Made by a program: the position numbers and the translations under genes. Shown here piece after piece: positions 34,438 to 50,519 of a stretch of 64,000 nt of DNA. The DNA comes from Phyllosticta citribraziliensis (lineage: Eukaryota): NCBI RefSeq assembly GCF_038025025.1, contig NW_027117338.1:2294001-2358000 (forward strand). The letters run 5' to 3'. Below the pieces are notes generated by a model. That model saw only the letters and a list, made by a program, of their open reading frames with translations. It made no database searches and was not told where the DNA came from. Each line of letters begins with the position of its first letter. The stretch's first letter is position 1.

Positions 34438-36543
34438 ATGGCTACGGCGCTCTCGGACGCGCTCGGGGAGCTAGGGCTGGTGTTGCGGCAGCACCCGTTT
34501 GCGACGCTGGCGGGCCTGGCGCTCGTGCTACTGGCGGCGGACTATGGACGGATGCTGTGGCTGCGGGCGAAAATGGTAGAGTCCGTTTTACTTTGCTTTC
34601 GCACTTCCTGTCTTTTCGCTCTGCTCCGTGAGAGAGAAAAAGGAAGAGGAGAATGCTGTGACGACAGTGAGGAAGAAATCCTGTTCTTGCAATTGCTCTC
34701 TCAAAATACATCACTTACTTACATCTGCTGCTAGCCCCCGGGCCCGCTGCCATGGCCCATCGTTGGGAATACTTTCTCGCTGCCAGACAATAAACCATGG
34801 ATCTTCTTTGAGAAGCTGGCCAAACAGTACCAAGCGCCAATGGTAACCTTTTGGATAGGAAGGTAGGCCACAACGGCAACGTCTCCGTTGGGAGCTTGCG
34901 ACAACTTCCCCCGACGCAAGACAAACAAACAGCTCACTGCATCCCGCACGCACATAGGAACCCAACAATCTGGATCTGCAACGCGCAAGCGGCGTCCGAC
35001 CTGCTCGACAAGCGCGCGGGAACCTACTCGTCGCGGCCGCGCATGGTCGTCTTCGCCGAGTGCGGCCCGGGCCAGGCGAACCTGGTCAACATGTACACGT
35101 TCACGGCGGCGCAGCGCGAGCGGTGGCGCATCCACCGCAAGGTGACGCACGCGGGCGTCGGCGTCCAGCAGGTGCGCCGCTACCGCTCGTTCCAGGACAA
35201 CGAGAACCGCGTCGTTGCGCGAGACCTGCTGGCCGCGCCGCACAAGTTTGCCGAGCACTTTGAGCGCTACGCCACGAGCGTCGTGTCCATTGTGGCGTTT
35301 GGCAGGCGCGTCGCCCGCGACGACGATCCGATCATTACGGAGGTTATTGCGGCCATGCAGTTGGCGGCGATTTTGAATGTGCCGGGTTTGTGTCCTTCCT
35401 TGGTTGTGGAGATGGAGGAAAAGCTCGGGAGAGGACGTTTGCTGACAAGAGACCAGACAAAACCTTTCCAATGCTCATGGAAACATTCCCCAGTGAGTCC
35501 ACTCCTCCTCCCATCTTGACCTGAATCACAATTCTGACAAGGCCGCGCCAGTCCTCGCCAAGTTCCCACCCGAAATCGCCCCCTGGAAGCGCGGCCTCGG
35601 CGCCCGTCGCAAAGGCGGGAACCACACCTTCTTCTACAGCCTGGCCAAGGAAGCCCTCGAGACGCCCGGCCACGACGAGTGCTACGCGAAGCAGCTCTTC
35701 GCCGCCGCGCCCAAGCACGGCCTGTCGCCCGAGGAAATCTCGTCGCTGGCCGGCAACCTGTTCGGCGCCGGCTCCGACACGTCGTCGTCGACGCTCATCA
35801 CGTTCGTGCTGGCGTGCTGCGCGTTCCCGGACGTCCTGCCGCCGGCGTGGGAGGAGCTCGACCGCGTCGTGGGCTCGCACCGCAGCCCGTCGTTTGACGA
35901 CCAGGCCGACCTGCCGTACGTCAACGCGTTCGTCAAGGAGGTTTTCCGCTGGCGGAGCGTGGCAATCATAGGCGGCCAGCCGCACGCGCCCGTCCAGGAC
36001 GATGTGTACCGCGGCTGGTTGATCCCAAAGGGCACCTGGGTCCAGGGCAACGTGTGGGCCATCCACCGCGACCCCGAGTACTTCCCCGACCCGGACCGCT
36101 TCAATCCGGAGCGCTTCCTGAATGGCGGGCTGAAGACTGCAAAGCCCTTCCCCGCTGAGCGCGGCTACATGACGTTTGGCTGGGGCCGTCGCGTGTGTTC
36201 GGGCCAGGCGTTGGCTGAGCAGGGCACCTTTCTGAGCATCGCGAGACTCCTGTGGGGATTCAGGATCGAGAAGGCGAGAGATGCGAGTGGTCGCGAGATT
36301 CCGGTCGACATTTTTGCGTATACGTAGGTTCTGACTTGCCCTGTATGGCGTTTGACGCGAGACTGACCGCACAGCAGAGACGGCTTAAACATGAGACCGC
36401 AGCCGTTCAAGTGCAGCATCACGCCCAGGAGTGAGGAGATTCGCCAAACGATTGAGAGAGAAGGGAAGCAGGCTTTGGAGGACTTGGCCGAGTACGAAGG
36501 ATCAACAAGCTATACGCTGTCACTGTTTGCTTCCAAAAGCTAG
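34438..36543 (+). CDS. Cytochrome P450 monooxygenase (CYP64-clan-like), multi-exon
   Basis: TM anchor, PPGPLPWPIVGN, YSSRPR, AGSDTSS, KEVFR, FNPERF, heme motif FGWGRRVCSG. Confidence 0.92.
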
Positions 36544-36980
36544 GGGTTGCCGCTCATTCTCGGATTAGAATCTGAACCGGTCATGAAGAAACATTTGCGA
36601 CGAGTCTGCAGTATCTGTCAGTCCAGACATTCCGGGTTGGGGTGAGATGATACTTGCAAGCTTTTGTCAACCACCACCAGCACTATGCGTCTTTGGAACA
36701 GAGTGAAGAAAGAATGCATGGTATTGGTATCAAAAATGGACGAATCTCCGATCGTCTTGATGATATCCCAAAGTCTCCCAAAACGCCGCCAATGTCCCTC
36801 GATGGAAACGACTGCAATGCGAATCAACAATAAGAGAGCGCCATCCAGGCATGCTCCGAGGTCCAACGCCGTCCTAATGCCCGGACATTTGACCGCCGTG
36901 AAAACGCCAGTACATACCATTTCCACAAAGACAGCCGTACCCACATGCTCTCAACGAAAGACAGGTCTTCCAACACGCGC

Positions 36981-37828
36981 CTAATGCAAATGGTCTTCGT
37001 CTCTCTGCTCCTCCTCATCATCGCTGTCGCTCACTTCTTCCCAGCCCGCCAGTCTCCTCAAGAGCTTGTTTTCAGCCTTGAGTTCCTTGATTTTTCGTTC
37101 GTGCGGCAGGCTTGCCTCGGAGCTTTCTTTCAACGCAGCCCGAGCGAATTGAGCAGCGCGCCCCAAACCTGCCTGCCATTCCTGATGCTCCAACCTGAGC
37201 TCCAGATTTTGCTGCCGTTCCTTCTCCAACAGAGTATTATAATGAGAGTGCAAAGCGAGGATGGCTTGCTCGTGTCGAAAGGTGAATGGTCGCAATTTTT
37301 CGAGAATCGCGGTGACGGAGGATTCGTAGTCTGATACGAGGCCTTGCAATGCGGAATTTTGCGATTCGAGAGAGGAGATTTTGCTTTGCGCGGCCTGAAG
37401 TTGGGTGCGAAGGGAGTTTATTTCTGCGAGTTGGGCGCGGTTGTTGGCAGCAGAAATATCGCCGTTCACTTGGGCGACGGTGGGTGGGGATCCATCTTGG
37501 GCGGCGCGAGCCTGTCCGAGGAATCGTTAGAATCTTGGACAGAGGATTGTTCAGGTTCAGCACATGCCTGTATTTGCTGCACGCTGTTCATGATATTGGC
37601 CGTCTGACTTCTATTCTCGGCGAGCACGTCGGACAGCTGCTGGACAACCTGCCACAAGTGGTTCATGTCGGTTTGGTGTCCTCCGCTCAGAAGACCGTTG
37701 ACGAGATTGGGCATGCCGCCGGAGCCGTTTGGTTGGTGGCCCGGGCCCGGCGATGGAGATTGTCGAGGAAGCGAGTTTGCCATGACGTTGTTGTTCGGGG
37801 AGTCGATATAGTGCGGAGGCTGATTCAT
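36981..37828 (-). CDS. Coiled-coil protein, probable SIKE/FGFR1OP2-like STRIPAK adaptor (SCI1/SipB-type); exons 37828-37568 and 37511-36981, ~263 aa
   Basis: Helical N-terminus DMNHLWQVVQQLSDVLAENR. QNSALQGLVSDYESSVTAILEKLR and IKELKAENKLLRRL resemble SIKE-family coiled coils (recalled similarity, not searched). A 56-nt GC-AG intron joins the two frames. Confidence 0.65.
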
Positions 37829-40800
37829 AATCCTTCGCACAGCGTTGGCGTTGACAAAGTCGACGTCGGGTGGATGTTGTGTTCCCGCGCGGGAGAGGAG
37901 GGGGGTCAAGCGACGAAGGACGAGGTCGTCATCGGACGACAGGAAGAAGTCTCTCTGGTGGGAAGCAAAAGGTAGAGCCCGGCTGGGAAGGGTCGTGGAG
38001 CGCTCGCTCCTGCTGTGGGATGCGGAGGAGGAAGAGGTTGTTGTTGGTCGTCTTGGACGTCGGAGGCGCGAACGACGTGGGCTGGCACCGCGGCCTGGGG
38101 GGTCCGAGCGCTGGTCCGCGGCCCGCTGTGGTCGCTCCTGGGCCCGTGCGTCCCGTTCGGCTTCAGAGGGCGATGTGCCTTTTTTGCCGCTCTCCTCCGC
38201 TTCGGATGACGACGCTCCCTCGGCCTCTGCAGATGGTCCAGAGTCGCGCTTGGCCGGTGGCTGTCCTGATTCTGCTGATCCGACCTCTTGCGCCGACTCG
38301 CTCACTTCGGGCTGCGTCTGCTCTTCCTTTGACACATCCTCAATGTGCTCCACATTGGAAGAACTCGGCTCTCCCACATCTTCAACGTACTGCACATCAG
38401 GCGAGTCGGAACGTGGAAAGTCTGGTCGGGGGTCCAAAATACTTCCCGTAAGTCCAACTCGGAAGGCCGTCTGTACCGAAGTATCAGAGGCCGCATCGTC
38501 GTCTCCGACTCGGAAAGCTGTCAGCACTGAACGATCAGAAGTTGCATCATCGGAGCTCCCTGCGTGCGCTTCACCGTCGCTTTCTCCCGTCCCATCTCCT
38601 TGGTCGGTCGACTTGGATGCACCCTCGGACTGACCCGACTTTTTCCTGAACGGATCGGAGAATAGTGCAGGCTTCCCCGCCGGCGTCTTGATTGGAGTCA
38701 TCCTGAGCTCCGGTGGCAGCGGTGGTAGGCCCGAGTCTGGGACACTGCTTCTAGGCGAGACGGTGTCGCCTTGAGATTTCTTTCTTTCCTTTTCCTCCCG
38801 TGCGGCGATACTTTTGGCGACCCATTCTATGATGCCGCGACTTTTCCTTCCCTCCGTTTTCCGCATTTCCCTTGCCGGTTCACCTCCCTTGCCGGTGGAT
38901 TTGACGCCGTCGCCCCCTTTGGCCATGGTCGCTTGTTCCTGATTGTGATCTCTTTCCGTGGCGGCCGTAAATCTCTCTGCCCTGCGTGTCCAGACTCTGT
39001 CCTTCAGCCTATGAATACTCCAGTCAAGCATCCAATCAGCTATTTTGGGACTCGGATCAGGATCATCCACGTCAACCTGGGGACTCTCCTTTTGGCCAGA
39101 TGACCTTGAAGCTACGGCGATGGACTGAGCTTGGTCTGGCGTCGCTGGATGGCTGGTTCCAGCTGTCAAATCCATAACAGGCCTCATCATATGGAGACTC
39201 AAATCAGGATTGTCCCGAAAGTTCTCTTGAATGGGCTTCGGCTTCGGCGGAATCGATCGGAACGTTCTCAACTTTTCGGCCAACCTCATCTTCGTCATCT
39301 TCTGGTACTCACTGCGCGTCCATGGATCTCTCATTTGACGCATCAGAAAGTCAACGACGCCCTCAGGGATGTCTCCGACCTCGCGAGCTGTCTTCTGAAT
39401 ATGAGCCCGCAGCTGCTTAAGTTTTGACTCCGAAGGAATGTCGGTAGACCAAAGACCGAGATGCCGTGGACTCCTTTCTTCCGCTGCATAGACAGGGGCG
39501 AAGCCGTCATCGGATTTCTCATCAAAACCAAAGTCGAACGGGGTAGTACTAGTACTACCAGCTGTCGAGGTGGCTTCGCTTGCAGTCACAGGTCCCTTGA
39601 CGATTGTCGTGCCTGGAAGAATTTGCTGATCAACAACGTGGCTTGACTCTGTTGATGTTGCGGTAGTTCCAACAGCTGGCTCTGCAGCGGTCGTCGACAA
39701 AGGATCTGCAGATGTAGATGAATCCTGAGAAGCATCGGCAGCGATGTCATCTTCGACCGTTGCTCGTCTCTTCCCGTCGCGCGCCTCGCGAAGGGCACGA
39801 CGGTGGGCCTCGTCCTCGAGAGTGGTGGGCAGCTCCTCATCTTCGTCATTCGCGCCATCCATTCCAAGACCCCAGTTATCTTGCTTCCAGTTGGAGGTAT
39901 CCGCGTCCTGTGTAACAGTGTCGCGTTCCATGCGCTCTTTTCGACGCGCCTCTTCTTGCTCAGGCGTCGTATAGAGCTCTTCAGGATCATCGTCGCCGTC
40001 TTGCGGCTTGCCTGTACCCCAGTAGTCCTTTCGCTGCAACAGCGCAGAGTCAGGATCTGGGATTGCGGTCTGGTCTGGAAAGGCAGGTCTCTCGTCTCCG
40101 GAGGCCGAACCATGGTCACTAGCCTCTGGTGTCGGGAAAGGTTCGTCGCTGTCTTCGCTAAAGGCATCGTCAAACGGATTGGCTGCAGACTCACGAGAAG
40201 GCCTAGATCCAGAGGGGAACGAGGGCAGCTTGGCGTCACCAGGATCAGAATTCGGACTGGACGATGCGCTGGTGTAGTCCTCATTGGAATCCTCTGACTG
40301 GCCTGTCGTTTGTCGCCACTTTCGATTGGCCTCGTCTGTCTGCGTCGTACCGCCAACGTTGAGCGCAGTCTTTGCGCGTCGAGCTCCAAAGAGGCGCTCG
40401 TTCAGCTCCGTATCGCTGCCCTCAACTTCTTCTTCACGAAGAAACGCGCTGGACTTTTGCATCATTCGAAGCGCAGAGTCGCGCGCCGCTTCGCGCTCGG
40501 CACGCTCATCTTCACTCTCGGGGCGATCAGGATCCTCTTCATCGCTTGAGTCAAGATAGCCGGCGAGCTCAGTCCGAGTGATTGCATCCAGCCAAAGTTC
40601 ATCCTCAGATTGAGCTCGGTCTGGTGTTTCGACTTCGTCGTCGGAGAGGAACCTGACAATTTCAGCCCGTCGAATTGCTGTGAAAAATAGCTCGTCCAGC
40701 ATCTCGCACTCTTTGTCGTCAAATTCGAGTCCCTCGGCACTGGAGCTGCCAATACCACTGACACTGTTACGCGGTGGAAGTGAGGGAGGTGAATGAAGTT

Positions 40801-43800
40801 GCTCTGACCTAGAATCCCCCTTGGTAACGTCTTTACGCTGTTTGTCGGCTTCTCCTGTCGCCTCGACCCGTGGATTGGCTTCCTGGCCCGTGCCTTTGTT
40901 CCCAAAGTGCATGGAAGACCTGTGCATCTTGTCTGATGGCTCCTTTCCAGTCTCCTTGTTGGGTTTAACGGTCTCTGTCGATGAATCTGATGACCTCGAC
41001 GATCCTGATGAGCTTGTGCGTTTCAAAACGCCCCTTCTCGGGCTACTCGTCGTCGATGACGGACTTATTGGCTGGCTCGGATCGCGAACCTCTTCTGGCG
41101 GCTCGTCGAACAAAAATTCGCGGTGTTCTGTTTCGGCGCGGAACGAAACTCTTTGGCCAGCTCCAGCAGGCTGAGGATTCGTTACGATGGGGGTCAATGG
41201 GGTAAGCGGCGGTCCACTTCGAAGAGTAGGATCACGCAGACGTCGAGATGGACTCGGAAAGTTGATGTCACTTTTACTGCGGCGCCGACTGCCTGCTTCG
41301 ACGAGAGTATCAGAGCTTGATGCACTGTACGTGGGCGGAAGGTCGTCGTTTGGATTGCAGTCTCGAGGACTGTCGCTCAAGCTGGTCGATGAGCTTCGTC
41401 GCAGAGGTAAAGATGGACTTGGAGGACCTGTGAGTGCGGAGGAAATAGAAGAAGCGGGCGTTGCAGCTTGTTGAACAGCAGATTCTTGCTGTGGCGAAGG
41501 CTGCGGGCCACCAGTGTCATCCAGATTCGGAGTGGTGTCTTCAGCATCAAAATCGCCGTCCAAGGGCGCGTCCAGCGCATCTTGTACTGAGACGGACTCC
41601 TCTGTTGAGCTAGCCCTTCTCTCGCTCGAAGACCGTTGAGTGGTAGTACCGGGAGCGCCGTCCAACGGTGCGGGTGAGTTTGCGGTAACGGTCCTTGATA
41701 GCGCACCATCGTCACCCCTTGACTGACGTGTGTCGTTCCCAACTTCGCCGCCATCGTCACGAGCTGATTGTCCCGTGAAAGAAAAGACATTGAGCCGGTT
41801 GTTGTCAGCCTTCTTCCTGTTCCACACCGCATTCTTGCCCAGCAAGTACCGGAGAAACTCCTCGTTGGTTGCGTGAGGCAAACACTTGACGCACAGTTTG
41901 TGGCCACGACAGCACTTCACTCGACCGCGAGATGAGTCAACCATTGGCCGTTTTGATCGTAGGAGCGAGACCTCATTCGTCAATCCGGCTCCGTTGCCAA
42001 ACGTCGAAAACGACCCCTTCGAGCGCCGCTCAAGGAACCATTGAGGCGGCCCATCGTCTTGCTTCTCTGACGGACAGAGCCATCCACTTTCCAGCTTGTT
42101 AGCGCCGCTCGTACTGGATGTATGGCCACTCCCCAAGTCCAGCGATCTTCCCCGCACCGACAGTCTTGGTTCGACCAGTTCTGTCGAAACATCAAAATAG
42201 TCGCGCGGGAAAATTGCCAAATGAAGTTGAAGTTGACCACGACTAGAGGCGCCTCCGCGTCCGCTCCCACTGGGTTGAGAGGAACCAGCATTGCCGGGTC
42301 CACTCGGTGGCTGACTGCGTCTGCTACGGTGAGAAGGACCAGGACTAGGTGGAAGTGGACTCCGACCACTAGGATTTTCAGGTACACTCCGTTGTCGATC
42401 ACGTGCTGGCTGAGGGTTTGCTGGACCAGGAACGGCGGAACGAGAGGGATTGCCCAGAGAGCCAGCTCTAGAACCAGCGGCAGACGGCGCCCTTACAGAG
42501 CCGGGACGGCTTGTGTGGTGCCTGGCGGGGTATTGAGAACCAGCTGTGGAAGCTCCCGGAGACTGGGCAACAGGTCGTGGGATGCCACTCGGTCTGGAAA
42601 GCCTTGATTGCTGTGAATGTACCGAAGGGGCAGGACCATTGTGACCACTGCTTGGTCCAACAGGTCTGTCAACTGGCTGAGTTCCATCCTGACCACCACT
42701 TGGTCCAACAGGTCTGTCAGTAGGCTGAGCTCCACCCGGACCATCACTCGGTCTAACAGGTTTTTCAGTAGGCTGAGTTCCTCCCTGACCACCACTTGGT
42801 CTAACAGGTCTGCCGACTGGCCGAGTTCCAGGTTGAGCACCGCCTGGCCCACCATTTCGAAAAGCTGGATGATTTCCAATAGTGTCGAAGCCATCCAAAG
42901 TATTTGGATTCGTGGCCCTAGGCGGATCTGACGCAGGGGGAGGTGCTGTCTGAAGCAGCAAACTCGATCTTTCGATATCAGTGTTGGGACGAGGATCTCG
43001 AGGCTGTCGTCTGAGAGCGGTCAAGATCCGTCTTGCCAAATCTCGACCGCTCCGACGTTGTTGGCTGCCGCGTCTTGCTGGACTTGGAGACTTTTGAACG
43101 GCTCCAGAACGATCGTTTCTGTTTTCGCCCCTCAAGCGTTGCACCAATCGCCGGAGCCGAGATGGCCTTTGCCTTGGTACCGCGGGGCTCGGACGGCGGT
43201 GAGCCGTCTCGCGTCTCGATGCCCTGGGTGGGTGGGTGATCGGTGCGTGACTTCTTGGACGATCAGCTCTATCATTCCGCCTCAAATTATCAGGCTCGTC
43301 TCGCGTTCGTCGTTCAGGAGGACGTTCTCTGTCTTGCCTTTCAGGGCGTCCTCTGTTCTGCCTTTCAGGGCGTGGAGTTGGAGTCCGAGGATTCATGAAA
43401 AAACGATTGTCTCTTTCTGGTTGGTTCGGATCCTGTGGAAGCCATGGCCATGGTAGCCCTCCTTGTGGTTGATCTCCCTCATTTCTGGGCCTTGGCCTCG
43501 ACCGAGGCTCGGAAGGGCCTGCACTTTGACGGTATCCATCAGAGTCATGATTACCATCGCCGCCGTGGTTGTTTTCTCGAGCGTACCCGCCTTGTGTGCC
43601 GCGTTCGTAATTTTGGCCGTTGTGGTGATTTATATCGAAGTACCCGCTTTGTTGACCAGACTCATCCTGGTTGCGGCGGTGATCTTGTTCGGTGTAACCG
43701 CCTTGTTGACTACGGTCATTTCGATTCTCGTTACCATCACGAGGCAATCTCCACGAAGCGCCTGCGCTTGTCGAGCTCTGAGATAAGCTATTGGGTTGAG

Positions 43801-45187
43801 GAATCTGAGGCTGGTGCGGAGGCGGATCTCTGTTCTCAGGGGGGCTGCCTGGAGGGGAAACTCTAGCTGCAAGCCGAGCCTGACGCTCCGCCGCGATTCT
43901 CCTCCTCCACGCGGTATCACGCGGCGGTTTGCCCCAGCCCTCTGAAGAGCTCCTGGAGCGTGAAGGGTCGCGAATGTCCGCTCGTAGAGGGAAAATGTGT
44001 GGAGGCCACGGTGTAAAAGTGGACGGTGGTTCTGCTTCCGCTGCTTGCTCTTGAACATCGGCTTGATCGTAATCTTCAAAGTACCCAAGTCCATCGACAA
44101 GCTCTTCTTCTGGCGGAGGTGGTTCAGGTTGTCCAAAATGGAGAGACGGTCTTGGACGGTGCGCTTGTAGAGGATGATTGCTCCGCGATCGGTCCCGAGC
44201 CCACATCTGGCGTGCTTCTGAAGGCGTAATTTCATGCTGCGTGCTGGCTGGCCTCGCTTGACGGCGTGCTTGACCTCGAGTAAGTTCCAAATGTCGATCG
44301 ATCCACGGTCCAGTGGAGTACAAGGGTACGCCTTGACGAACGTAGAGTTGAGTGGTTCCATATGCGTAAAGAGTCTCTTCTCTGCTTGTATGGGCTGGGG
44401 TTCGATCACGATGTCCAACCAAACGGCTCCCGTGGTTCCTTGTCGAACTCCGCACTCCAGACGGGGCGCTGTGTCTGATGCTGTGAAGCCCCGAGCTCGC
44501 TCCAGACCGGTCTTGACGCCTGTTGCCAACCACAGGCGGATGAACGATCAATTCAGACGTCGACCCTGCTCTTGGGCTGTATTGCTGTGGGGTCCTATGG
44601 TTAATTAAAGAGGGTTGGTTAGACGGACCAGCTACCGGGCGGTTTTGACCCTGAGGCCCGTTGCCGGTGGTAGCAGTACGGGGAGCGACGTTGACCCGAC
44701 CAGTTTGTTGGTGTTGTTGCGGAGCAGCGCCGTGGTCAGTCCCAGCTGGTCCAGGAGCAAGATTGGACGGACCAGCTTCTGGTTGGTTTTGATGTTGCCC
44801 GAAGCCAGTATCAGTTTCAACAGCGACAAGGGTGTTTGTGAACAGACCCGTTTCTGGATCGTAACGCGTTTGAAAACTGGGCATCATCACAGGTGGGAGT
44901 TGAGCCATGTTAGCCTGAACAGTTATCGGATGGATTTGCCCACGACCCCAGCCGATCTCAACTGGGCGTTCAACAATGTTGGCCAGACGAGGTCTTGGTC
45001 GAGCAAGATCAGGCGGTCCAATTCTGCGCGTCAATTGCCCCTGTAGCCCCCGGGGAACTTGAGGTGCCGCTGCTGCCGGAACTCCTGCATCCCCATGTCC
45101 CAGGACCCATCGTGCCACACTGGAGGGCTCATTCCCGCGAGGGTAGGATTCGAGCTGCATTCGGCCGAGCGTCATGCCCTGACCCAC
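37466..45187 (-). CDS. Very large, mostly low-complexity/disordered hypothetical protein ORF (2573 codons), in frame with the SIKE-like gene at its 3' end
   Basis: 7.7 kb stop-free frame; P/S/R/G/Q-rich N-terminal half, acidic C-terminal half; internal frame-preserving repeats; no recognisable domain. Confidence 0.7.
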   Translation of the reverse strand: MGQGMTLGRMQLESYPRGNEPSSVARWVLGHGDAGVPAAAAPQVPRGLQGQLTRRIGPPDLARPRPRLANIVERPVEIGWGRGQIHPITVQANMAQLPPVMMPSFQTRYDPETGLFTNTLVAVETDTGFGQHQNQPEAGPSNLAPGPAGTDHGAAPQQHQQTGRVNVAPRTATTGNGPQGQNRPVAGPSNQPSLINHRTPQQYSPRAGSTSELIVHPPVVGNRRQDRSGASSGLHSIRHSAPSGVRSSTRNHGSRLVGHRDRTPAHTSREETLYAYGTTQLYVRQGVPLYSTGPWIDRHLELTRGQARRQARPASTQHEITPSEARQMWARDRSRSNHPLQAHRPRPSLHFGQPEPPPPEEELVDGLGYFEDYDQADVQEQAAEAEPPSTFTPWPPHIFPLRADIRDPSRSRSSSEGWGKPPRDTAWRRRIAAERQARLAARVSPPGSPPENRDPPPHQPQIPQPNSLSQSSTSAGASWRLPRDGNENRNDRSQQGGYTEQDHRRNQDESGQQSGYFDINHHNGQNYERGTQGGYARENNHGGDGNHDSDGYRQSAGPSEPRSRPRPRNEGDQPQGGLPWPWLPQDPNQPERDNRFFMNPRTPTPRPERQNRGRPERQDRERPPERRTRDEPDNLRRNDRADRPRSHAPITHPPRASRRETAHRRPSPAVPRQRPSRLRRLVQRLRGENRNDRSGAVQKSPSPARRGSQQRRSGRDLARRILTALRRQPRDPRPNTDIERSSLLLQTAPPPASDPPRATNPNTLDGFDTIGNHPAFRNGGPGGAQPGTRPVGRPVRPSGGQGGTQPTEKPVRPSDGPGGAQPTDRPVGPSGGQDGTQPVDRPVGPSSGHNGPAPSVHSQQSRLSRPSGIPRPVAQSPGASTAGSQYPARHHTSRPGSVRAPSAAGSRAGSLGNPSRSAVPGPANPQPARDRQRSVPENPSGRSPLPPSPGPSHRSRRSQPPSGPGNAGSSQPSGSGRGGASSRGQLQLHLAIFPRDYFDVSTELVEPRLSVRGRSLDLGSGHTSSTSGANKLESGWLCPSEKQDDGPPQWFLERRSKGSFSTFGNGAGLTNEVSLLRSKRPMVDSSRGRVKCCRGHKLCVKCLPHATNEEFLRYLLGKNAVWNRKKADNNRLNVFSFTGQSARDDGGEVGNDTRQSRGDDGALSRTVTANSPAPLDGAPGTTTQRSSSERRASSTEESVSVQDALDAPLDGDFDAEDTTPNLDDTGGPQPSPQQESAVQQAATPASSISSALTGPPSPSLPLRRSSSTSLSDSPRDCNPNDDLPPTYSASSSDTLVEAGSRRRSKSDINFPSPSRRLRDPTLRSGPPLTPLTPIVTNPQPAGAGQRVSFRAETEHREFLFDEPPEEVRDPSQPISPSSTTSSPRRGVLKRTSSSGSSRSSDSSTETVKPNKETGKEPSDKMHRSSMHFGNKGTGQEANPRVEATGEADKQRKDVTKGDSRSEQLHSPPSLPPRNSVSGIGSSSAEGLEFDDKECEMLDELFFTAIRRAEIVRFLSDDEVETPDRAQSEDELWLDAITRTELAGYLDSSDEEDPDRPESEDERAEREAARDSALRMMQKSSAFLREEEVEGSDTELNERLFGARRAKTALNVGGTTQTDEANRKWRQTTGQSEDSNEDYTSASSSPNSDPGDAKLPSFPSGSRPSRESAANPFDDAFSEDSDEPFPTPEASDHGSASGDERPAFPDQTAIPDPDSALLQRKDYWGTGKPQDGDDDPEELYTTPEQEEARRKERMERDTVTQDADTSNWKQDNWGLGMDGANDEDEELPTTLEDEAHRRALREARDGKRRATVEDDIAADASQDSSTSADPLSTTAAEPAVGTTATSTESSHVVDQQILPGTTIVKGPVTASEATSTAGSTSTTPFDFGFDEKSDDGFAPVYAAEERSPRHLGLWSTDIPSESKLKQLRAHIQKTAREVGDIPEGVVDFLMRQMRDPWTRSEYQKMTKMRLAEKLRTFRSIPPKPKPIQENFRDNPDLSLHMMRPVMDLTAGTSHPATPDQAQSIAVASRSSGQKESPQVDVDDPDPSPKIADWMLDWSIHRLKDRVWTRRAERFTAATERDHNQEQATMAKGGDGVKSTGKGGEPAREMRKTEGRKSRGIIEWVAKSIAAREEKERKKSQGDTVSPRSSVPDSGLPPLPPELRMTPIKTPAGKPALFSDPFRKKSGQSEGASKSTDQGDGTGESDGEAHAGSSDDATSDRSVLTAFRVGDDDAASDTSVQTAFRVGLTGSILDPRPDFPRSDSPDVQYVEDVGEPSSSNVEHIEDVSKEEQTQPEVSESAQEVGSAESGQPPAKRDSGPSAEAEGASSSEAEESGKKGTSPSEAERDARAQERPQRAADQRSDPPGRGASPRRSRLRRPRRPTTTSSSSASHSRSERSTTLPSRALPFASHQRDFFLSSDDDLVLRRLTPLLSRAGTQHPPDVDFVNANAVRRIMNQPPHYIDSPNNNVMANSLPRQSPSPGPGHQPNGSGGMPNLVNGLLSGGHQTDMNHLWQVVQQLSDVLAENRSQTANIMNSVQQIQACAEPEQSSVQDSNDSSDRLAPPKMDPHPPSPK
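38454..38552 (-). repeat. Two-copy 51-nt coding repeat (DxxSDxSVxTAFRVG)
   Basis: DDATSDRSVLTAFRVG followed by DDDAASDTSVQTAFRVG. Confidence 0.75.
42643..42832 (-). repeat. About four copies of a 48-nt (16-aa) coding tandem repeat, GGQDGTQPxDRPVGPS-type
   Basis: cttggtccaacaggtctgtc...gaccacca unit recurs every 48 nt. Confidence 0.85.
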
Positions 45188-45340
45188 TGGTAATGGAGAA
45201 ACGGTCGCCCTACTGTGAGGGTAAAGGGTAGAGATACTTGGACTCGAAGCGTGTCGGCTGCTACAAGCCGGTGCCGAGTTGTTGCTTGTTCCAACCCGAG
45301 TCCAAGGCCGAGCTTCGCTTCCAATGTTTCTGTGTGGTTG

Positions 45341-46618
45341 CTAGCCACGTTCTGGTATGTCCGCCAAACTGCCAAGCCTTCGGGGGATACCTTGCCAGCC
45401 AAGAGTAGGAAGACCCGTCATGGGATAGACAAATTCGGGGACGTTTGAGGTTTGTGGAACCAAGATGGGGTCGAAATCGGGGAACGGGACTCTGCCTGGC
45501 TCCGGTTCTGAGGCTGTTCGTCTACGCGTTCGCACAGGGCGCGCATGTTGTCGAACAGAGCGAAGGAATACGGAATACACGTTTGTCGGGTCATGGAAGT
45601 ACATTGGCCCAATTTTTTCGAGCGGATCTTTGACTTCCTGTGCCTCTTTGACTGCCTTGCCAGAAGTTTTAATGTCCAGCGAAGTTCTTCTGGAACGAAT
45701 CCAAGGCAAATCGTAGACAGGGGTGTCGTGGCGATCATCAATTGCTGGAGAATTGGGAGATCGATCACATTTGGGAGAAAGACTTCGGGTTCCATATGGA
45801 GCAGGCACTGGAGAGCCAGCACTGTTTACCTCTGGGCCAGCAGTCCAGTAAGCATCATCGTGTCTGTCGGCTGGAATATACTCATAAAGGTAGATCCGAT
45901 TTCCGTGGCCGTCTCTCTGTCCTATTTCGTCGAGGTTGAGAAATAGTCGTCCGCAACGAGGGTGAAAGAAAGAGCTGTAGCGAGGGTGCCTATCAGGGGT
46001 GGCGAGATCTCGCAGATTGTCTCCCAGCATCGGGATCGAGTCATCGGAATGACCGGCCGGTAAGTTGGGGTAAAGTGGATTATATTTGGGCGCGTCGGCG
46101 GTATCCTGAGAATCCTCGAAATCGTAAGGTCTTTGGCCACCAATGCCTGCTGGAAATACGGTGAGATTTTCCGGGCGAGAAGGATTCGTCAAGGCCAGAA
46201 GCTCCGAAGTCCTGTCCTGGGCCGCAGGAGCCTTGCCATCCAACAGATCAAGCAGTCTCTGCAGCAAACCTGGAAGTGGTTTCTTGGAAGGGTTTTCGCT
46301 GGATCCACTGCTAGATCGAAAGACGTGAGTCTTTTTCAAAGGAGGGTTTGAGTGGCTGGGTGCCGTGCGGACGGGCCGTCTGGGTCTTGTACAAGCCGGG
46401 TGTTGGAAAGAGGTGAGTGAGTGCGCATCGAAGCCGGCCTCAATTTCTCGTGCGCCAGGCGTGAAAGCCGGAGGAGACGCTCGAGACCTGGAAACGTGGC
46501 AACCAGCGTGCTGCCCTGTTGCGGTCTCTCGGCGACGGCTTCTCACAGACGAGACAAGAGTGCGACGGTAGTAAGGACCGCAGGGGTCTTGAGAACACCG
46601 CCTGCGTGGCCTTGCCAT
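45341..46618 (-). CDS. Hypothetical protein ORF (first ATG 46618), in frame with the downstream 2573-codon ORF and separated from it by one TAG
   Basis: 448-codon ORF in the track. The spacing from 45343 to 45187 is 156 nt and the intervening codons contain no stop. Confidence 0.55.
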   Translation of the reverse strand: MARPRRRCSQDPCGPYYRRTLVSSVRSRRRETATGQHAGCHVSRSRASPPAFTPGAREIEAGFDAHSLTSFQHPACTRPRRPVRTAPSHSNPPLKKTHVFRSSSGSSENPSKKPLPGLLQRLLDLLDGKAPAAQDRTSELLALTNPSRPENLTVFPAGIGGQRPYDFEDSQDTADAPKYNPLYPNLPAGHSDDSIPMLGDNLRDLATPDRHPRYSSFFHPRCGRLFLNLDEIGQRDGHGNRIYLYEYIPADRHDDAYWTAGPEVNSAGSPVPAPYGTRSLSPKCDRSPNSPAIDDRHDTPVYDLPWIRSRRTSLDIKTSGKAVKEAQEVKDPLEKIGPMYFHDPTNVYSVFLRSVRQHARPVRTRRRTASEPEPGRVPFPDFDPILVPQTSNVPEFVYPMTGLPTLGWQGIPRRLGSLADIPERG

Positions 46619-47374
46619 TGCGGAGGTGCGTCGAGCCTGGTGGTTCTGAAGATGAAAGGGCTCGACCAAAGAGCGTCGTGTTGACAAGGTGGATGAGAAT
46701 TAAAGTGGAAGTGGTGGTGATGATGGTGGAATGAATATGTAAGCTTGCTTGCTTGTTGTTGATTTCCAGGTGAGTGAAATGGTAAGACTGCCTGGGAGAG
46801 TGGAGATGTTATTCGTCGTAAACGATGACAATGTTGGGTATAATGCGATGAGGGATCGTGGATCTGAGATCGATCTGGGACTGGAACTCCACGCGATGAA
46901 CCGCTGGGAGGCGCGGAGCTCCCTCCTGGCCGAGCGACATCGTCGCTTCCTGATGTTGTAGCGTTTTCCGTGGCGACGGCGTGATGTTGGCAGGCTTTGA
47001 AGAAGGACACGTCGGACAGATCATGAGTTCCACGGTGGTTTCCTTGCAAGATTTCCAACAAGCAGAGATGCAAGGAAGGAAGAAATTCGTACGCAAGATG
47101 CACCTGGACATGGAGCCAACCAGTACCGAAAGTCGGGGTTCTCTGCAGCAGGATTGTGCTTGAGGGAGCCGTGGCGCAAAGCGCGTTCGAGGCCAAACTT
47201 TGACTCTTGTCGGAAGTGCAGGTGAAATGTGCTGTGGCGGCGACATGGTGCACGCCGTGGTAGTAGCAGTGGTAAACAGGCAGACGACATCACCCACCAA
47301 CCACCAGGCGCCAGAACCACCAAACCTCTGCAAGTTAAAGTCTCCACAATTCGCCTTCCTTCCATCAACAAAAA

Positions 47375-47935: not shown

Positions 47936-50519
47936 CTAAATCTCAACGGCAACACTGCCCCTCAGATCTCTAGAGCTGCTACCCACGGAAAACGTGTATG
48001 TGCCCTTGGCCAGCGCCCACTCCTTGGCCGCCGTGTCCCAGTGGCTGATATCCTTGCGGCGCACCTCGAACGTGACGGTGCTCTTGGCGCCCTTGTCGAG
48101 AGGCACCTTCTCGAAGCCGCGCAGCTGCCTCACCGGCTGGTTGGCGGCGGCCGGGTACGAGACGTAGAGCTGGGCGACTTCGGCGCCGGAGCGCGAGCCG
48201 GTGTTGGTCAGCGTTGTGGTGATGGTCAGGACGGTGTCGAAAAGGTCGGTCTGTGGATTTGTTTGTTAGTCATAGATTTGTTTGATGCCTGCATGAGATA
48301 CTGACCTTGCCACCAATAGCAATGGGTCCGCTGGGGTACGTCGCGCTCAGTGCCGTCTCGTTCGTCTTCTTGGCCGTCACATCACCGTACTCAAACGTCG
48401 TGTACGAAAGGCCGTGGCCGAAGGGGTAGCGCGGCGTGACGTTGAAGCGGTCAAAGTGGCGGTAGTCAATGTAGACGCCCTCGTCAAAGTCGCACTGTGC
48501 CGTGTAGCAAAGTTTGACCGGGTAGTCGCTCTCGTTCTTTGCAAGGGTGCTGATCAGCTTGCCGCTAGGGTTGACGTCGCCGTAAAGGACGTCGGCAATG
48601 GCGTTACCGCTCTCCTGGCCCAGCATGCCGCCGTAAAGCACAGCCGTCACATTTTCAAGCTCAATCCAGGCGTCAACGAGGCGAGGTCCGACAGTGTTGA
48701 TAACAACGACAGTGTTGTTGCACTCGGAGGCGACCGACTGGACGAGCGTGTCTTGGTCGGTGTTGTACAGCTCTTCCCTGTCAGCACCCTCGCCGGAGAA
48801 TGAGTTCAGGAAGACGAGGCAGACTTCAGAGTCCTCTGCATAATTGGTGATGGAGGGCGTAACTGCTGTGCCTTGGCCGAGGTTGGAGAGCGCATTGCCG
48901 CCGCCTCCGCCACCTCCCCTGGAGGCTCCGGACCCGCTGCTCGTGCTGCTGGAGCTAGAGTTGCTGGATCCGCTGGGACCCCCAGTGCCTCCAGTGGTGG
49001 GTGGCGAGCCCATGCCCATACCAGAAGAAGAGGAAGAAGTGTACGTGTCGTTGAGGATCCAGCGAATCATGCTGCCATCGGCAGCAGCCCGCGTCGTGAG
49101 ACTCTGGTAAGGAGTAATGAGGTAGGAGAAGGAGAGTTGACCGCTGCCGCTGCCCGATGCCAAGTGGCCCTGGTACGTAGGACCGCTCGACCCTTGGACA
49201 CTGAATGCCTGGTTGGGGCCGGCCATGGCAGGGCCAGCATGAGCACCAAACACGCTGATGGACTTGGGGCGATCCAAGGGAAGACCGCCGCCGTTTGTGG
49301 CGTTATTCTTCAGAAGGACAAGAGACGCGGCGCTGACCTCGCGGATCAGAGCCGAGTGGTTGGAGCGGACATCGCGGTAGTCGGTCGAGCCGGCCTCAGA
49401 GGGTTGCTTGCCGTTGTCCAGTCCGACATAGTAGTATCCAATGACGTTGCGGATGGCCATGTCGTCGAGACGCGCCTGGGTGAAGGAGCCGTTGCTAATG
49501 CCAGCCTCCAAAATCGTTGACGTCCAGAGAGAGCTTGATCCGTAGTCCAGGCCAGCGTTAGCTGAGCCGTAAGAGGTCGATTGCGAGTTTACGTCTGGGA
49601 AGACCATGCCGGGGAAGCCAAGCTCCTCCTTGAGAAGTTCAGAGACAATGTGGCTGTTTTCGCACGACTGCGAGTTGTTCACCCGGGACATGGCGCACAT
49701 GACAGCGGCCATGCCTGCCTTCACACCGTCCTGGAACGGCCAGAGGTAGAGTTCATGGATAGTCTATGTGGGTCAGTTTCCTTGCTGTCAGCTCAAAGGG
49801 GCTAGGATATACCTTATCATCAGCGTTGGACGAATACACCGAGGACGTCGAGTCCGACGTGCCAGTGGATCTGTTCGTCTCCTGCTCATTGAGCAGAAAG
49901 TGCCTACCGCCTGCAACGACGCCAGCTGAGTTCATTCCACCAATGGTTTTGGCCAGGGCAACGCCGCTAAGGTACGGGTCAGGCGAGAAAGCTTCTGATT
50001 GGCGACCGCCCCACGGGGTGCGACCAAGAGGCCCAGCCTCGGGACCGTTGATCAGGTTGTAGCCCATGAGATAAAACTCACGACCCGAAGCTTTGGCCTC
50101 GGCTTCAAAGTAGTCTTTGTCCCAGGTCATGGCCAAGGCATTGCCCATGGGGAAACCAGAGACGTAGTATTGGTAGTTGATTCCAGCAAAGCCATCCTTG
50201 TTGGCAAGAGCTGTCCAAGAGGAGCCATTGGTCGAGTCGACATCGCTGCCGGTAATTATGGAAACCTTTTGCGCGTTGGTCAGTCCAGACACAAAGGCTT
50301 TGGCTTTCGCATAAGCTTCAGCAAAGTCGCCGAGATCCTGAACTGTTCGTCAAAACAATTAGCCATCAAGCAAAGTGTGCAACCTCGGCCGACTCCCAGT
50401 TCAGGGCCAGGGCACATACCATGTCCAGATGACAGAATGGCCGCGTTGGACGAGTTTGATGCTGCACTCACGCCGCAAAACAGCGTCGAGGCAAGACCGA
50501 AAGCTGCCGCAGCTTTCAT
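47936..50519 (-). CDS. Secreted glycoside hydrolase family 3 beta-glucosidase (BglD-like) with FnIII domain, 4 exons
   Basis: Signal peptide, GPLGRTPWGGR, DPYLSG, HFLLNEQE, LLKEELGFPGMVFPD (nucleophile Asp), GQESGNAIADVLYGDVNPSGKL, PFGHGLSYT, QLRGFEKV. Confidence 0.93.

Follow-up and report, generated by a model that had tools for sequence, protein, structure and literature searches.

A long Phyllosticta reading frame continues in frame into a conserved SIKE gene and may specify nested long and short isoforms

Introduction

The SIKE subunit of STRIPAK is treated as a small adaptor. In a 64,000 nt stretch of the Phyllosticta citribraziliensis genome (the window), a compact gene of this kind lies at the end of a giant reading frame in the same phase, which raises the question of whether the locus specifies a small adaptor, a giant protein that contains it, or both. 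STRIPAK in fungi is described as controlling hyphal fusion, fruiting-body formation, secondary metabolism and pathogenicity (PMC8226480, PMC6438568). SIKE proteins are described as pairing with SLMAP/PRO45/SipD inside the complex, of which SCI1 and SipB are reported members (PMC6438568, PMC9588061).

Results

The short gene encodes a SIKE family protein

The compact gene is read from the minus strand and comprises the following elements.

37828-37568, minus strand: SIKE exon 1, 87 codons from the ATG at 37828
37567-37512, minus strand: GC-AG intron of 56 nt with donor GCATGT, branch site TCTAAC and acceptor CAG
37511-36981, minus strand: SIKE exon 2, 176 codons plus the TAG at 36983-36981, with most of the SIKE/coiled-coil domain
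37829-38032, minus strand: probable 5′UTR of the short SIKE transcript, which is also the least conserved in-frame, open spacer of the giant frame
36471-36980, minus strand: SIKE 3′UTR, overlapping the 3′ end of a convergent P450 gene

The two-exon sequence specifies a product of 263 aa, and the original prediction of a compact gene with its first exon from 37828 and a GC-AG intron was confirmed in its coordinates. The intron is removed in RNA contigs of the runs X1, X2 and X3 (joint 37509>37566, with 6 letters of slack); the joint is absent in the DNA-like run X5. The same exon junction is found in P0001, a full-length orthologue that is 94% identical and has the same exon structure. The public model P0002 mis-splices at the GC-AG intron and gains 9 extra residues. 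Both public gene models at the locus appear to be wrong, apparently because of this intron. On the 3′ side, the SIKE contigs begin at 36471 (X1) and 36644 (X2), while that of X3 continues into the P450 gene. On the 5′ side, they end at 38032 (X2) and 38030 (X3), which gives, from two runs of different organisms, a weak hint of a separate start for the short mRNA; the loose letters at the X2 end are adapter-like. The 204 nt preceding the ATG are 62% C+T, as expected from the CT-rich stretch noted there earlier.

Sequence comparison supports the assignment of the short product to the SIKE family, which had been proposed from similarity. Against the PF05769 gathering cut-off of 24.3 bits, P0001 reaches 27.2 bits with an alignment to profile positions 4-176 of 180, exon 2 of the window alone scores 23.9 bits, just below the cut-off, over positions 44-176, and PF05769 stands in the precomputed list for P0002. 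Exon 2 has 33 homologues and is 100% identical to P0002. The Met-Asn start is common to 12 of the 14 aligned sequences, the remaining two being fragments. Orthologues of 255-284 aa occur across Dothideomycetes, and all relatives annotated outside the genus are stand-alone proteins of ~260 aa.

The AF2 model of P0001, built with 14 aligned sequences, predicts helices at residues 55-93 and 99-241 with pLDDT up to 98, whereas residues 1-52 and 246-263 stay below 50. The exon 1 product is accordingly predicted to begin with ~52 disordered residues before the first helix, so an added N-terminal arm need not disturb the helices. When the profile of the 14 fungal sequences was compared with PDB chains, no SIKE1 chain was found at E ≤ 1, the top hit being an unrelated coiled-coil chain (E 0.01). 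The long predicted helices fit the architecture of the SIKE family. Fungal SIKE proteins are not all small, which corrects the earlier description of SIKE-like adaptors as small coiled-coil subunits.

A giant frame without stops precedes the SIKE gene

Upstream of the SIKE gene, the same phase remains open over a far longer distance.

37829-45187, minus strand: giant disordered frame in frame with SIKE exon 1 (stop-to-stop 45340-37469; first ATG 45175)
45343-45341, minus strand: single in-frame TAG between two long frames, covered by an X1 contig with 0 differences
46687-45344, minus strand: upstream frame in the same phase, 448 codons, first ATG 46618
42642-42830, minus strand: tandem repeat, 48 nt × 3.9, encoding a 16-aa Pro/Gly-rich unit
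38948-39490, minus strand: best-conserved island (…MRQMRDPWTR…), 51% identical to P0034 and 97% identical to P0035

The stretch 45340-37469 comprises 2,624 codons with 0 stops and lies in the frame of SIKE exon 1, as originally predicted. The five remaining frames carry 45, 136, 54, 87 and 71 stops across the same interval, which excludes openness by chance. The predicted fusion would be 2,716 aa if started at 45187, 2,712 aa if started at the first ATG (45175), or 3,193 aa if started at 46618, close to the earlier estimates of ~2,700 aa from 45187 and ~3,190 aa past the TAG. A scan for canonical minus-strand introns across this TAG found no candidate, and the 448-codon upstream frame matched neither a Pfam family nor P0034.

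The giant frame is rich in S, P, R and G, and no Pfam domain was found in it. Per 150 aa, its first half carries a net charge of +4 to +19 and much of its second half one of −14 to −23, roughly the basic N-half and acidic C-half that had been claimed. GC3 is 0.42-0.54, below that of the neighboring genes (about 0.57-0.86).

The giant frame is probably conserved as a reading frame within Phyllosticta

The sole detected homologue of similar length is P0034, a gene model of Phyllosticta capitalensis, with 41% identity over 1,731 columns. No homologue of the giant frame was found outside the genus Phyllosticta, to which the frame appears to be restricted on information from two species. The AF2 model of the best-conserved island is weak (mean pLDDT 55.9), with helices within residues 21-79 at about 70-80.

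Among the small length changes listed in relatives, 11 of 12 fall inside the giant frame, all being net multiples of three, and the twelfth is in the SIKE 3′UTR. The larger changes, where known among the rows listed, measure 96, 63, 3, 237 and 42 nt. The copy number of the 48 nt repeat varies in frame, X3 being 96 nt shorter. By a hand count over a small part of the rows, the giant frame holds 18 listed X3 substitutions, 10 of them on third codon positions. These patterns suggest that the giant frame is under selection as a reading frame.

The junction with SIKE exon 1 is open here and in the P. capitalensis gene model

P0034 reads in frame from the giant part via …VDFVNA..RRIM NQ.PQYIDS through the whole of SIKE exon 1. 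Frame continuity is thus kept in the one relative with a giant-frame homologue (1/1); since P0034 is a gene model rather than DNA, the predictor could have spliced around a stop. Protein-level conservation with P0034 extends as far as …ASPRRSRLRRP near 38040, no more than about 14 codons from the ends of the SIKE contigs. The spacer that follows, which corresponds to the SIKE 5′UTR, showed no alignable amino-acid similarity to P0034 (alignment residues ~110-178); it differs between the two species in length and sequence yet remains in frame.

The openness of the junction by itself is weak evidence and could be luck, because stops are scarce there in all three frames (0, 1 and 2 in 137 codons). 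What carries weight is the lack of any stop codon belonging to the giant frame itself, which makes a giant fusion protein plausible. As a control, the DMNHLW motif was located in 27 of 32 SIKE loci; two of the 27 run off the contig, leaving 25 other fungal loci with a defined upstream stop. In these, 60-192 open codons precede the motif, compared with 2,557 here. A crude splice scan, which does recover the true SIKE intron, returned nothing better than weak GC-donor candidates in 37829-38700.

The splice junctions seen across the giant frame are antisense

RNA contigs also cover the giant frame, separated from those of the SIKE gene by a gap.

38033-38238, no strand assigned: gap between the SIKE contig ends and the giant-region contig starts, 68% GC, the minus strand still coding-like
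38224-47215, plus strand: RNA contigs over the giant frame (X1 38239-47215; X3 38224-46510)
38448-38541, plus strand: antisense intron 1, 94 nt, GTAAGT...AAG, joint in X1 and X2
42716-42768, plus strand: antisense intron 2, 53 nt, GTCAGT...TCTAAC...CAG, joint found in X1 alone (shorter side 30 letters)
45848-45893, plus strand: antisense intron 3, 46 nt, GTAAGC...TAG, joints in X1 (shorter side 255 letters) and X2

Because these splice junctions are plus-strand GT-AG, at least part of the RNA that covers the giant frame is antisense. Intron 2 sits within the 48 nt tandem repeat, and at intron 3 the spliced contig is the sole X1 piece listed. With intron 1 removed, the relative P0035 aligns end to end at 296/315 identical positions; without removal, residues 1-267 align. 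The plus-strand RNA contains no long reading frame, the longest being 191 codons after splicing.

None of the listed joints or contig pieces connects the giant frame with the SIKE exons, no X1 contig covers the SIKE start codon, and the listed joints of the giant region include none on the minus strand. The RNA seen so far comes from the short gene and an antisense transcript only; RNA contigs cannot show the absence of a transcript. The DNA-like run X5 continues across 38051-38504. The stretch 38033-38238 may be an internal bidirectional promoter.

The earlier idea of nested isoforms thus stands in part: SIKE identity, splicing of the intron and frame continuity agree with it, but no listed joint or contig runs from the giant frame into SIKE, and the junctions seen in the giant region are antisense.

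Discussion

The explanation that we prefer, to which we give about an even chance, is that the locus combines a conserved SIKE gene with a lineage-specific addition in a shared frame, producing nested long and short isoforms. It derives from the logic of the reading frame: having no stop of its own, the giant frame, if translated completely, would have to pass through the SIKE 5′UTR into exon 1. With the same GC-AG intron removed, translation would continue through the whole SIKE coiled coil. The short adaptor would come from an internal promoter near 38030-38240, and an upstream promoter would yield a far larger protein (about 2,700 aa, at most 3,193 aa), in which a charge-patterned disordered arm would be joined to the already disordered N-terminus of a STRIPAK-binding module. 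The internal promoter may fire both ways; the second product would be a spliced antisense transcript of about 9 kb covering the giant frame, and it could repress the long sense transcript under the sampled conditions. Points against nested isoforms are the antisense introns, the first of them also spliced in P0035, the lack of a link to the SIKE exons among the listed joints, the unconserved and stop-poor spacer, the status of P0034 as a gene model, the restriction of the information to two species, the lower GC3 and the in-frame TAG that splits the 5′ part.

It is unlikely that two independent genes merely abut here, the giant protein stopping before SIKE through an unseen minus-strand splice or another event and the continuity being incidental. 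The SIKE contigs stop at 38030/38032 and the giant-region contigs start at 38224/38239 in different runs, a weak hint of separation; the junction is poor in stops in every frame, the amino acids of the spacer are not conserved, and the annotated relatives outside the genus all stand alone at about 260 aa. Against such an arrangement, however, the giant frame lacks a closing stop in both species, and conservation of coding sequence extends to about 38040, so that a stop and a 3′UTR would not fit in ahead of the SIKE transcription unit. In 37829-38700 the crude splice scan gave nothing beyond weak GC-donor candidates, and the joints listed for the giant region are never on the minus strand. Still less probable is a giant protein that carries SIKE exon 1 only, through a kept intron or early polyadenylation, and ends at the TGA at 37468-37466 without a functional SIKE domain. 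The frame does stay open about 33 codons into the intron, and the public P0034 model was built with the intron kept. However, the SIKE contigs of X1, X2 and X3 have the intron removed, and the ending of P0034 is most simply a failure of the predictor on the GC donor, at which P0002 mis-splices too.

We likewise consider it improbable, though slightly less so, that the giant frame is a relic, not or no longer translated here, and that the locus mainly yields a long spliced plus-strand non-coding RNA diverging from the SIKE promoter. The three plus-strand introns, the lack of a plus-strand frame above 191 codons after splicing, the atypical codon-position GC, the in-frame TAG at 45343-45341 and the failure to find a homologue outside the genus would fit such a relic. 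A relic, however, would not hold 2,624 codons open where the other frames carry 45-136 stops, would not stay open in a species only 41% identical, and would not limit length changes in relatives to multiples of three.

A bolder version of nested isoforms, possible but doubtful, is that a genus-specific gene of ~8-9 kb for a charge-patterned disordered protein has been welded onto SIKE, so that the old SIKE promoter now lies inside coding sequence and is bidirectional, with the short adaptor mRNA on one side and a spliced 9-kb antisense RNA across the giant frame on the other. The fusion, made from an upstream promoter, would tether or sequester STRIPAK, and the locus would act as a three-way transcriptional switch between free adaptor and a tethered adaptor of ~300 kDa. 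A lineage-specific SIKE protein of ~2,700 aa would be a new route to re-target a conserved phosphatase complex, and would clearly illustrate how a young disordered gene that evolves fast can gain function through the capture of an old domain. Compact and found in a plant-associated fungus, the locus also lends itself to the study of promoter-in-ORF architecture and of antisense control.

Two general mechanisms are comparable: alternative promoters can produce nested long and short isoforms, and bidirectional promoters in fungi can give rise to divergent antisense RNAs. Such patterns would be matched by an internal start in the long frame together with a divergent transcript that begins ~190-200 nt from it on the opposite strand, although here the strand of the RNA is known from splice-site orientation only.

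The short product resembles the SIKE/FGFR1OP2 family (PF05769; STRIPAK subunits human SIKE1, Sordaria macrospora SCI1, Aspergillus nidulans SipB) in its PF05769 match and its two predicted long helices behind a disordered head, and the Dothideomycete orthologues in its length of about 260 aa. The difference from the family is that 2.5-3.2 thousand lineage-specific disordered codons precede the gene in frame without a stop. SipB of A. nidulans is described as a 444 aa protein with a C-terminal SIKE-like domain (PMC6438568) and is, from that description, likewise a fungal SIKE protein with an N-terminal addition before the SIKE domain. Judged from 444 aa against the 180-position Pfam profile, the SipB addition should be a few hundred residues long and belongs to the one product described there, whereas the addition here would be at least 10 times longer, confined to one genus and present beside a separately transcribed short form. 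In P0036, a 774-aa ORF called on a fungal metagenome contig and known in that form, at least 453 in-frame codons precede a recognizable SIKE Met-Asn start, with no sequence similarity to the giant frame. SipB and P0036 thus provide precedent for N-terminal additions to SIKE.

The short gene encodes a SIKE-family protein

The compact gene at the end of the giant frame consists of the following parts (window positions).

37828-37568, minus strand: SIKE exon 1, 87 codons at the end of the giant frame, starting at the ATG 37828 (MNQPPHYIDS...VQQIQ)
37567-37512, minus strand: GC-AG intron of 56 nt (GCATGT...TCTAAC...CAG)
37511-36981, minus strand: SIKE exon 2, 176 codons, ending at the TAG 36983-36981

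Exon 2 alone scored 23.9 bits against the SIKE family PF05769, just below the cut-off of 24.3, over profile positions 44-176. The 263-aa orthologue P0001, which is 94% identical, scored 27.2 bits over positions 4-176 of 180 and carries exactly the exon junction predicted from the GC-AG intron, with QQIQ followed directly by AR. A homology search returned 33 proteins, and the best named match is P0002, a public model labelled as a partial hypothetical protein of Phyllosticta citribraziliensis, which covers 95% of exon 2 at 100% identity. Orthologues in Botryosphaeriales and Pleosporales are 255-284 aa long and mostly contain PF05769; the Met-Asn start lies at the same column in 12 of 14 aligned sequences, the remaining two being fragments. 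AlphaFold2 applied to this 14-sequence alignment predicted residues 1-52 to be disordered (pLDDT <50) and residues 55-93 and 99-241 to form helices (pLDDT up to 98). A fungal SIKE profile matched no SIKE1 chain in the PDB. The SIKE assignment is borne out by PF05769 as far as family membership is concerned, and the gene for the short product is a genuine, ordinary member. Its probable connection to STRIPAK is based on Pfam membership and on the literature (PMC6438568, PMC8226480, PMC9588061).

Runs X1 and X2 share an organism code, and X3 carries a second one, about 4-5% different. These runs were taken as RNA solely because their contigs skip both the SIKE intron and the GT-AG intron 36324-36377 of the neighboring cytochrome P450 gene; X5 skips neither intron and behaves as DNA. 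The SIKE contigs were as follows.

X1: 36471-37509 joined to 37566-37767
X2: 36644-37509 joined to 37566-38032
X3: contig continuing through 37566-38030

In all three runs 56 nt are skipped at 37509>37566 with 6 letters of slack, which fits splicing of the predicted intron 37512-37567. P0002 mis-models this intron, using a GT donor 27 nt downstream that adds 9 extra residues and leaves a 29-nt intron, and P0034, the model of the giant frame in P. capitalensis, runs straight into it, to a stop. The GC-AG intron is real and was missed by both public protein models.

A giant reading frame found only in Phyllosticta

The following features lie upstream of the SIKE gene.

45340-37469, minus strand: giant frame, 2,624 codons, stop-free by ORF listing and direct translation
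46687-45344, minus strand: a further open stretch of 448 codons, in phase with the giant frame and separated from it by a single TAG (45343-45341)
42642-42830: in-frame tandem repeat, 48 nt x 3.9
38453-38552: in-frame tandem repeat, 51 nt x 2

The remaining five frames contain 45, 136, 54, 87 and 71 stops over the same 7.9 kb, so the openness of the giant frame is not due to chance. No canonical intron was found that would bypass the TAG; splicing from a GTATCC donor at 45390 would remove 61 or 50 nt and so put the two parts out of frame. All coordinates and lengths of the original prediction were reproduced (263 aa for the short product, ~2,700 aa for the long one and ~3,190 aa with the TAG bypassed).

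The giant frame is rich in Ser (11.7%), Pro (10.7%), Arg (10.4%) and Gly (8.3%), with ~17% hydrophobic residues. Net charge, counted per 150 aa, is positive in the first half, where it reaches +19, and lies at -14 to -23 in much of the second. GC3 is 0.42-0.54 and lower than GC1, an atypical feature by which the frame differs from the neighboring genes. The copy number of the tandem repeats varies among relatives: 96 nt (42668-42765) are absent from X3 and 237 nt (42715-42953) from X5, which also carries a duplication of 42 nt at 38340-38381. Pfam recognized no family in the giant frame, the upstream 448-codon frame, P0034 or P0036, a 774-aa SIKE ORF from a fungal metagenome. An ESM Atlas search gave a top score of 0.80 with low recognition and no lead, and the best-conserved island yielded an AF2 model (mean pLDDT 55.9) too weak for a fold search.

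In a word-seeded search of proteins of 1,397-4,445 aa, the sole relative was P0034, a 2,446-aa hypothetical protein, which is 41% identical over 1,731 columns corresponding to the C-terminal ~1,550 residues; the N-terminal ~990 residues did not align to it. A HMMER search of 1.84 billion representatives, with the 1,200 residues immediately preceding the SIKE ATG as query, returned only P0035, a 315-aa fragment from a relative (94% identical); this library is incomplete, as it also failed to return P0034. Neither long frame had a tblastn match in 32 fungal metagenome loci with a SIKE gene. Within the limits of these protein searches and 32 loci, the giant frame appears to be restricted to Phyllosticta.

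The frame is still open in P. capitalensis, where P0034 is a gene model, despite only 41% identity. All 11 of the small length changes listed inside it in X3 and X5 net to multiples of three; the sole exception among the listed changes is +A at 36769 in the SIKE 3′UTR. The larger listed differences with both sides known measure 96, 63, 3, 237 and 42 nt. Third codon positions are hit by 10 of the 18 listed X3 substitutions within the frame, a hand count over a small share of the rows. These patterns are evidence of selection on the giant frame as a reading frame.

The giant frame continues into the SIKE gene

No stop closes the giant frame ahead of the SIKE gene: it first meets either the TGA 37468-37466 in the SIKE intron or, once spliced, the SIKE stop. 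P0034 likewise lacks such a stop and passes through ...NVDFVNARSPRRRIMNQSPQYIDS... and the whole of exon 1. Protein conservation between the two extends to ...ASPRRSRLRRP at ~38040, beyond which ~68 codons in the window and ~78 in P0034 are unalignable yet in frame. Twenty-five further fungal SIKE loci have a defined upstream stop, and in these 60-192 open codons precede the DMNHLW motif, about 50-70 of them belonging to the SIKE protein itself, compared with 2,557 in the window; the motif occurs in 27 of the 32 loci, two of which run off the contig, and many loci are duplicates of one species. The junction is stop-poor in all frames (0, 1 and 2 stops per 137 codons), a caveat on continuity, and the evidence comes from two species, one represented by a gene model. 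Continuity is kept in the sole relative with the giant frame, and these arguments favor its belonging to the SIKE gene.

RNA over the giant frame is at least partly spliced antisense RNA

As contigs give neither strand, ends nor absence, only joints and bridges were counted. Contigs cover the giant frame in X1 (38239-47215) and X3 (38224-46510), and three joints were found there.

38447>38542, plus strand: 94 nt, intron 38448-38541, GTAAGT...AAG, in X1 and X2
42715>42769, plus strand: 53 nt, GTCAGT...TCTAAC...CAG, in X1
45847>45894, plus strand: 46 nt, GTAAGC...TAG, in X1 and X2

With zero slack, all three read GT..AG on the plus strand, where their sequences are good fungal introns, and CT..AC on the minus strand. 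For P0035 to align end-to-end with the minus strand (296 of 315 residues identical in one block, then a stop), 38448-38541 has to be taken out; with this segment left in, the alignment is confined to residues 1-267. This alignment independently supports splicing of 38448-38541 in a relative. Repeat collapse is an unlikely source of the joints: the two introns that fall within repeats measure 94 and 53 nt, which do not correspond to whole numbers of the 51- and 48-nt units, and no end letters are shared. After removal of the three introns the longest plus-strand frame is 191 codons. Thus, the giant-frame RNA of organism A is at least partly spliced antisense and apparently non-coding. The 8.2-kb contig of X3 keeps all three intron segments and may represent sense mRNA or unspliced antisense RNA.

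SIKE contigs of two runs from different organisms end at almost the same point, only 2 nt apart and ~200 nt ahead of the start codon, and X5 runs on across 38051-38504; the ends at 38030/38032 are a weak hint of an RNA end. The first giant-frame contig starts ~190-200 nt from there. Contigs are missing from 38033-38223 in X2 and X3 and from 37768-38238 in X1, and the listed pieces explain all of the depth recorded. Such gaps prove nothing, because the X1 gap includes the SIKE start codon, necessarily present in its RNA. With dUTP-stranded libraries, 38032 and 38224 would be 5′ ends of minus- and plus-strand RNA, respectively, but this argument from adapter orientation is unsupported.

Possible gene organizations

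The original prediction of nested isoforms, a giant-SIKE fusion and a short SIKE protein, stands in part: the SIKE gene has its own mRNA and the frame is continuous, but the giant-frame joints read as antisense, and the long sense transcript would have to be present under conditions not sampled. We give this organization about an even chance. Such a transcript, if existing, must enter SIKE exon 1 and most likely would encode the fusion. The short mRNA would arise from an internal promoter at ~38030-38240, which is read as bidirectional and would also produce the antisense RNA.

Two independent genes would require an ending of the giant frame that is unseen in the window and in P0034, and we consider them unlikely. 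If the giant frame were a relic, overlain by a long non-coding RNA and not translated, this would fit the antisense joints and sit poorly with length changes in multiples of three; this is improbable. Least probable is termination within a retained SIKE intron, where the TGA is available and where P0034 ends, in an intron that the contigs of X1-X3 skip.

N-terminal extensions of other SIKE proteins

According to the literature, A. nidulans SipB has 444 aa with the SIKE domain at the C-terminus, an N-terminal addition (PMC6438568), and the N-terminal half of S. macrospora SCI1 is bound by PRO45/SLMAP (PMC9588061), so that an N-terminal arm would adjoin that interface. Among SIKE homologues of 309-2,000 aa, the search yielded only P0036. 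On its 42,552-nt contig, at least 453 Ser/Pro-rich codons precede the SIKE Met-Asn start in frame; unrelated in sequence to the giant frame, they may represent another case of a SIKE gene extended N-terminally, independent of this one. The novelty here lies in the size (at least 10 times any precedent found), in an occurrence confined to a single genus, and in the pairing with antisense RNA and with a short form that is transcribed separately. Literature searches on STRIPAK/SIKE alternative promoters or isoforms, Phyllosticta antisense transcription and the P. citribraziliensis genome listed no account of such a locus.

Neighboring genes and transcripts

The following features flank the locus.

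34812-36673, plus strand: cytochrome P450 gene (PF00067, 177 bits for the 35497-36324 piece), GT-AG intron 36324-36377 spliced in X1-X3
46546-47289, minus strand, other phase: 248-codon open frame with no Pfam family
48273-49763, minus strand: glycoside hydrolase family 3 gene (PF01915, 163.7 bits; PF00933, 32.3 bits), upstream of the giant frame and in the same orientation

The P450 gene is convergent with the SIKE gene, and one X3 contig spans both; their 3′ ends thus overlap or abut at ~36471-36673. The 248-codon frame is overlapped by the X1 RNA contig extending to 47215, and is a candidate 5′UTR, upstream exon or 3′ part of the antisense RNA. Some X1 and X2 contigs match the window solely at 37694-37731 in SIKE exon 1, with unrelated flanks and loose ends of up to 255 letters; they may derive from another transcript with a short similar stretch or be chimeric.
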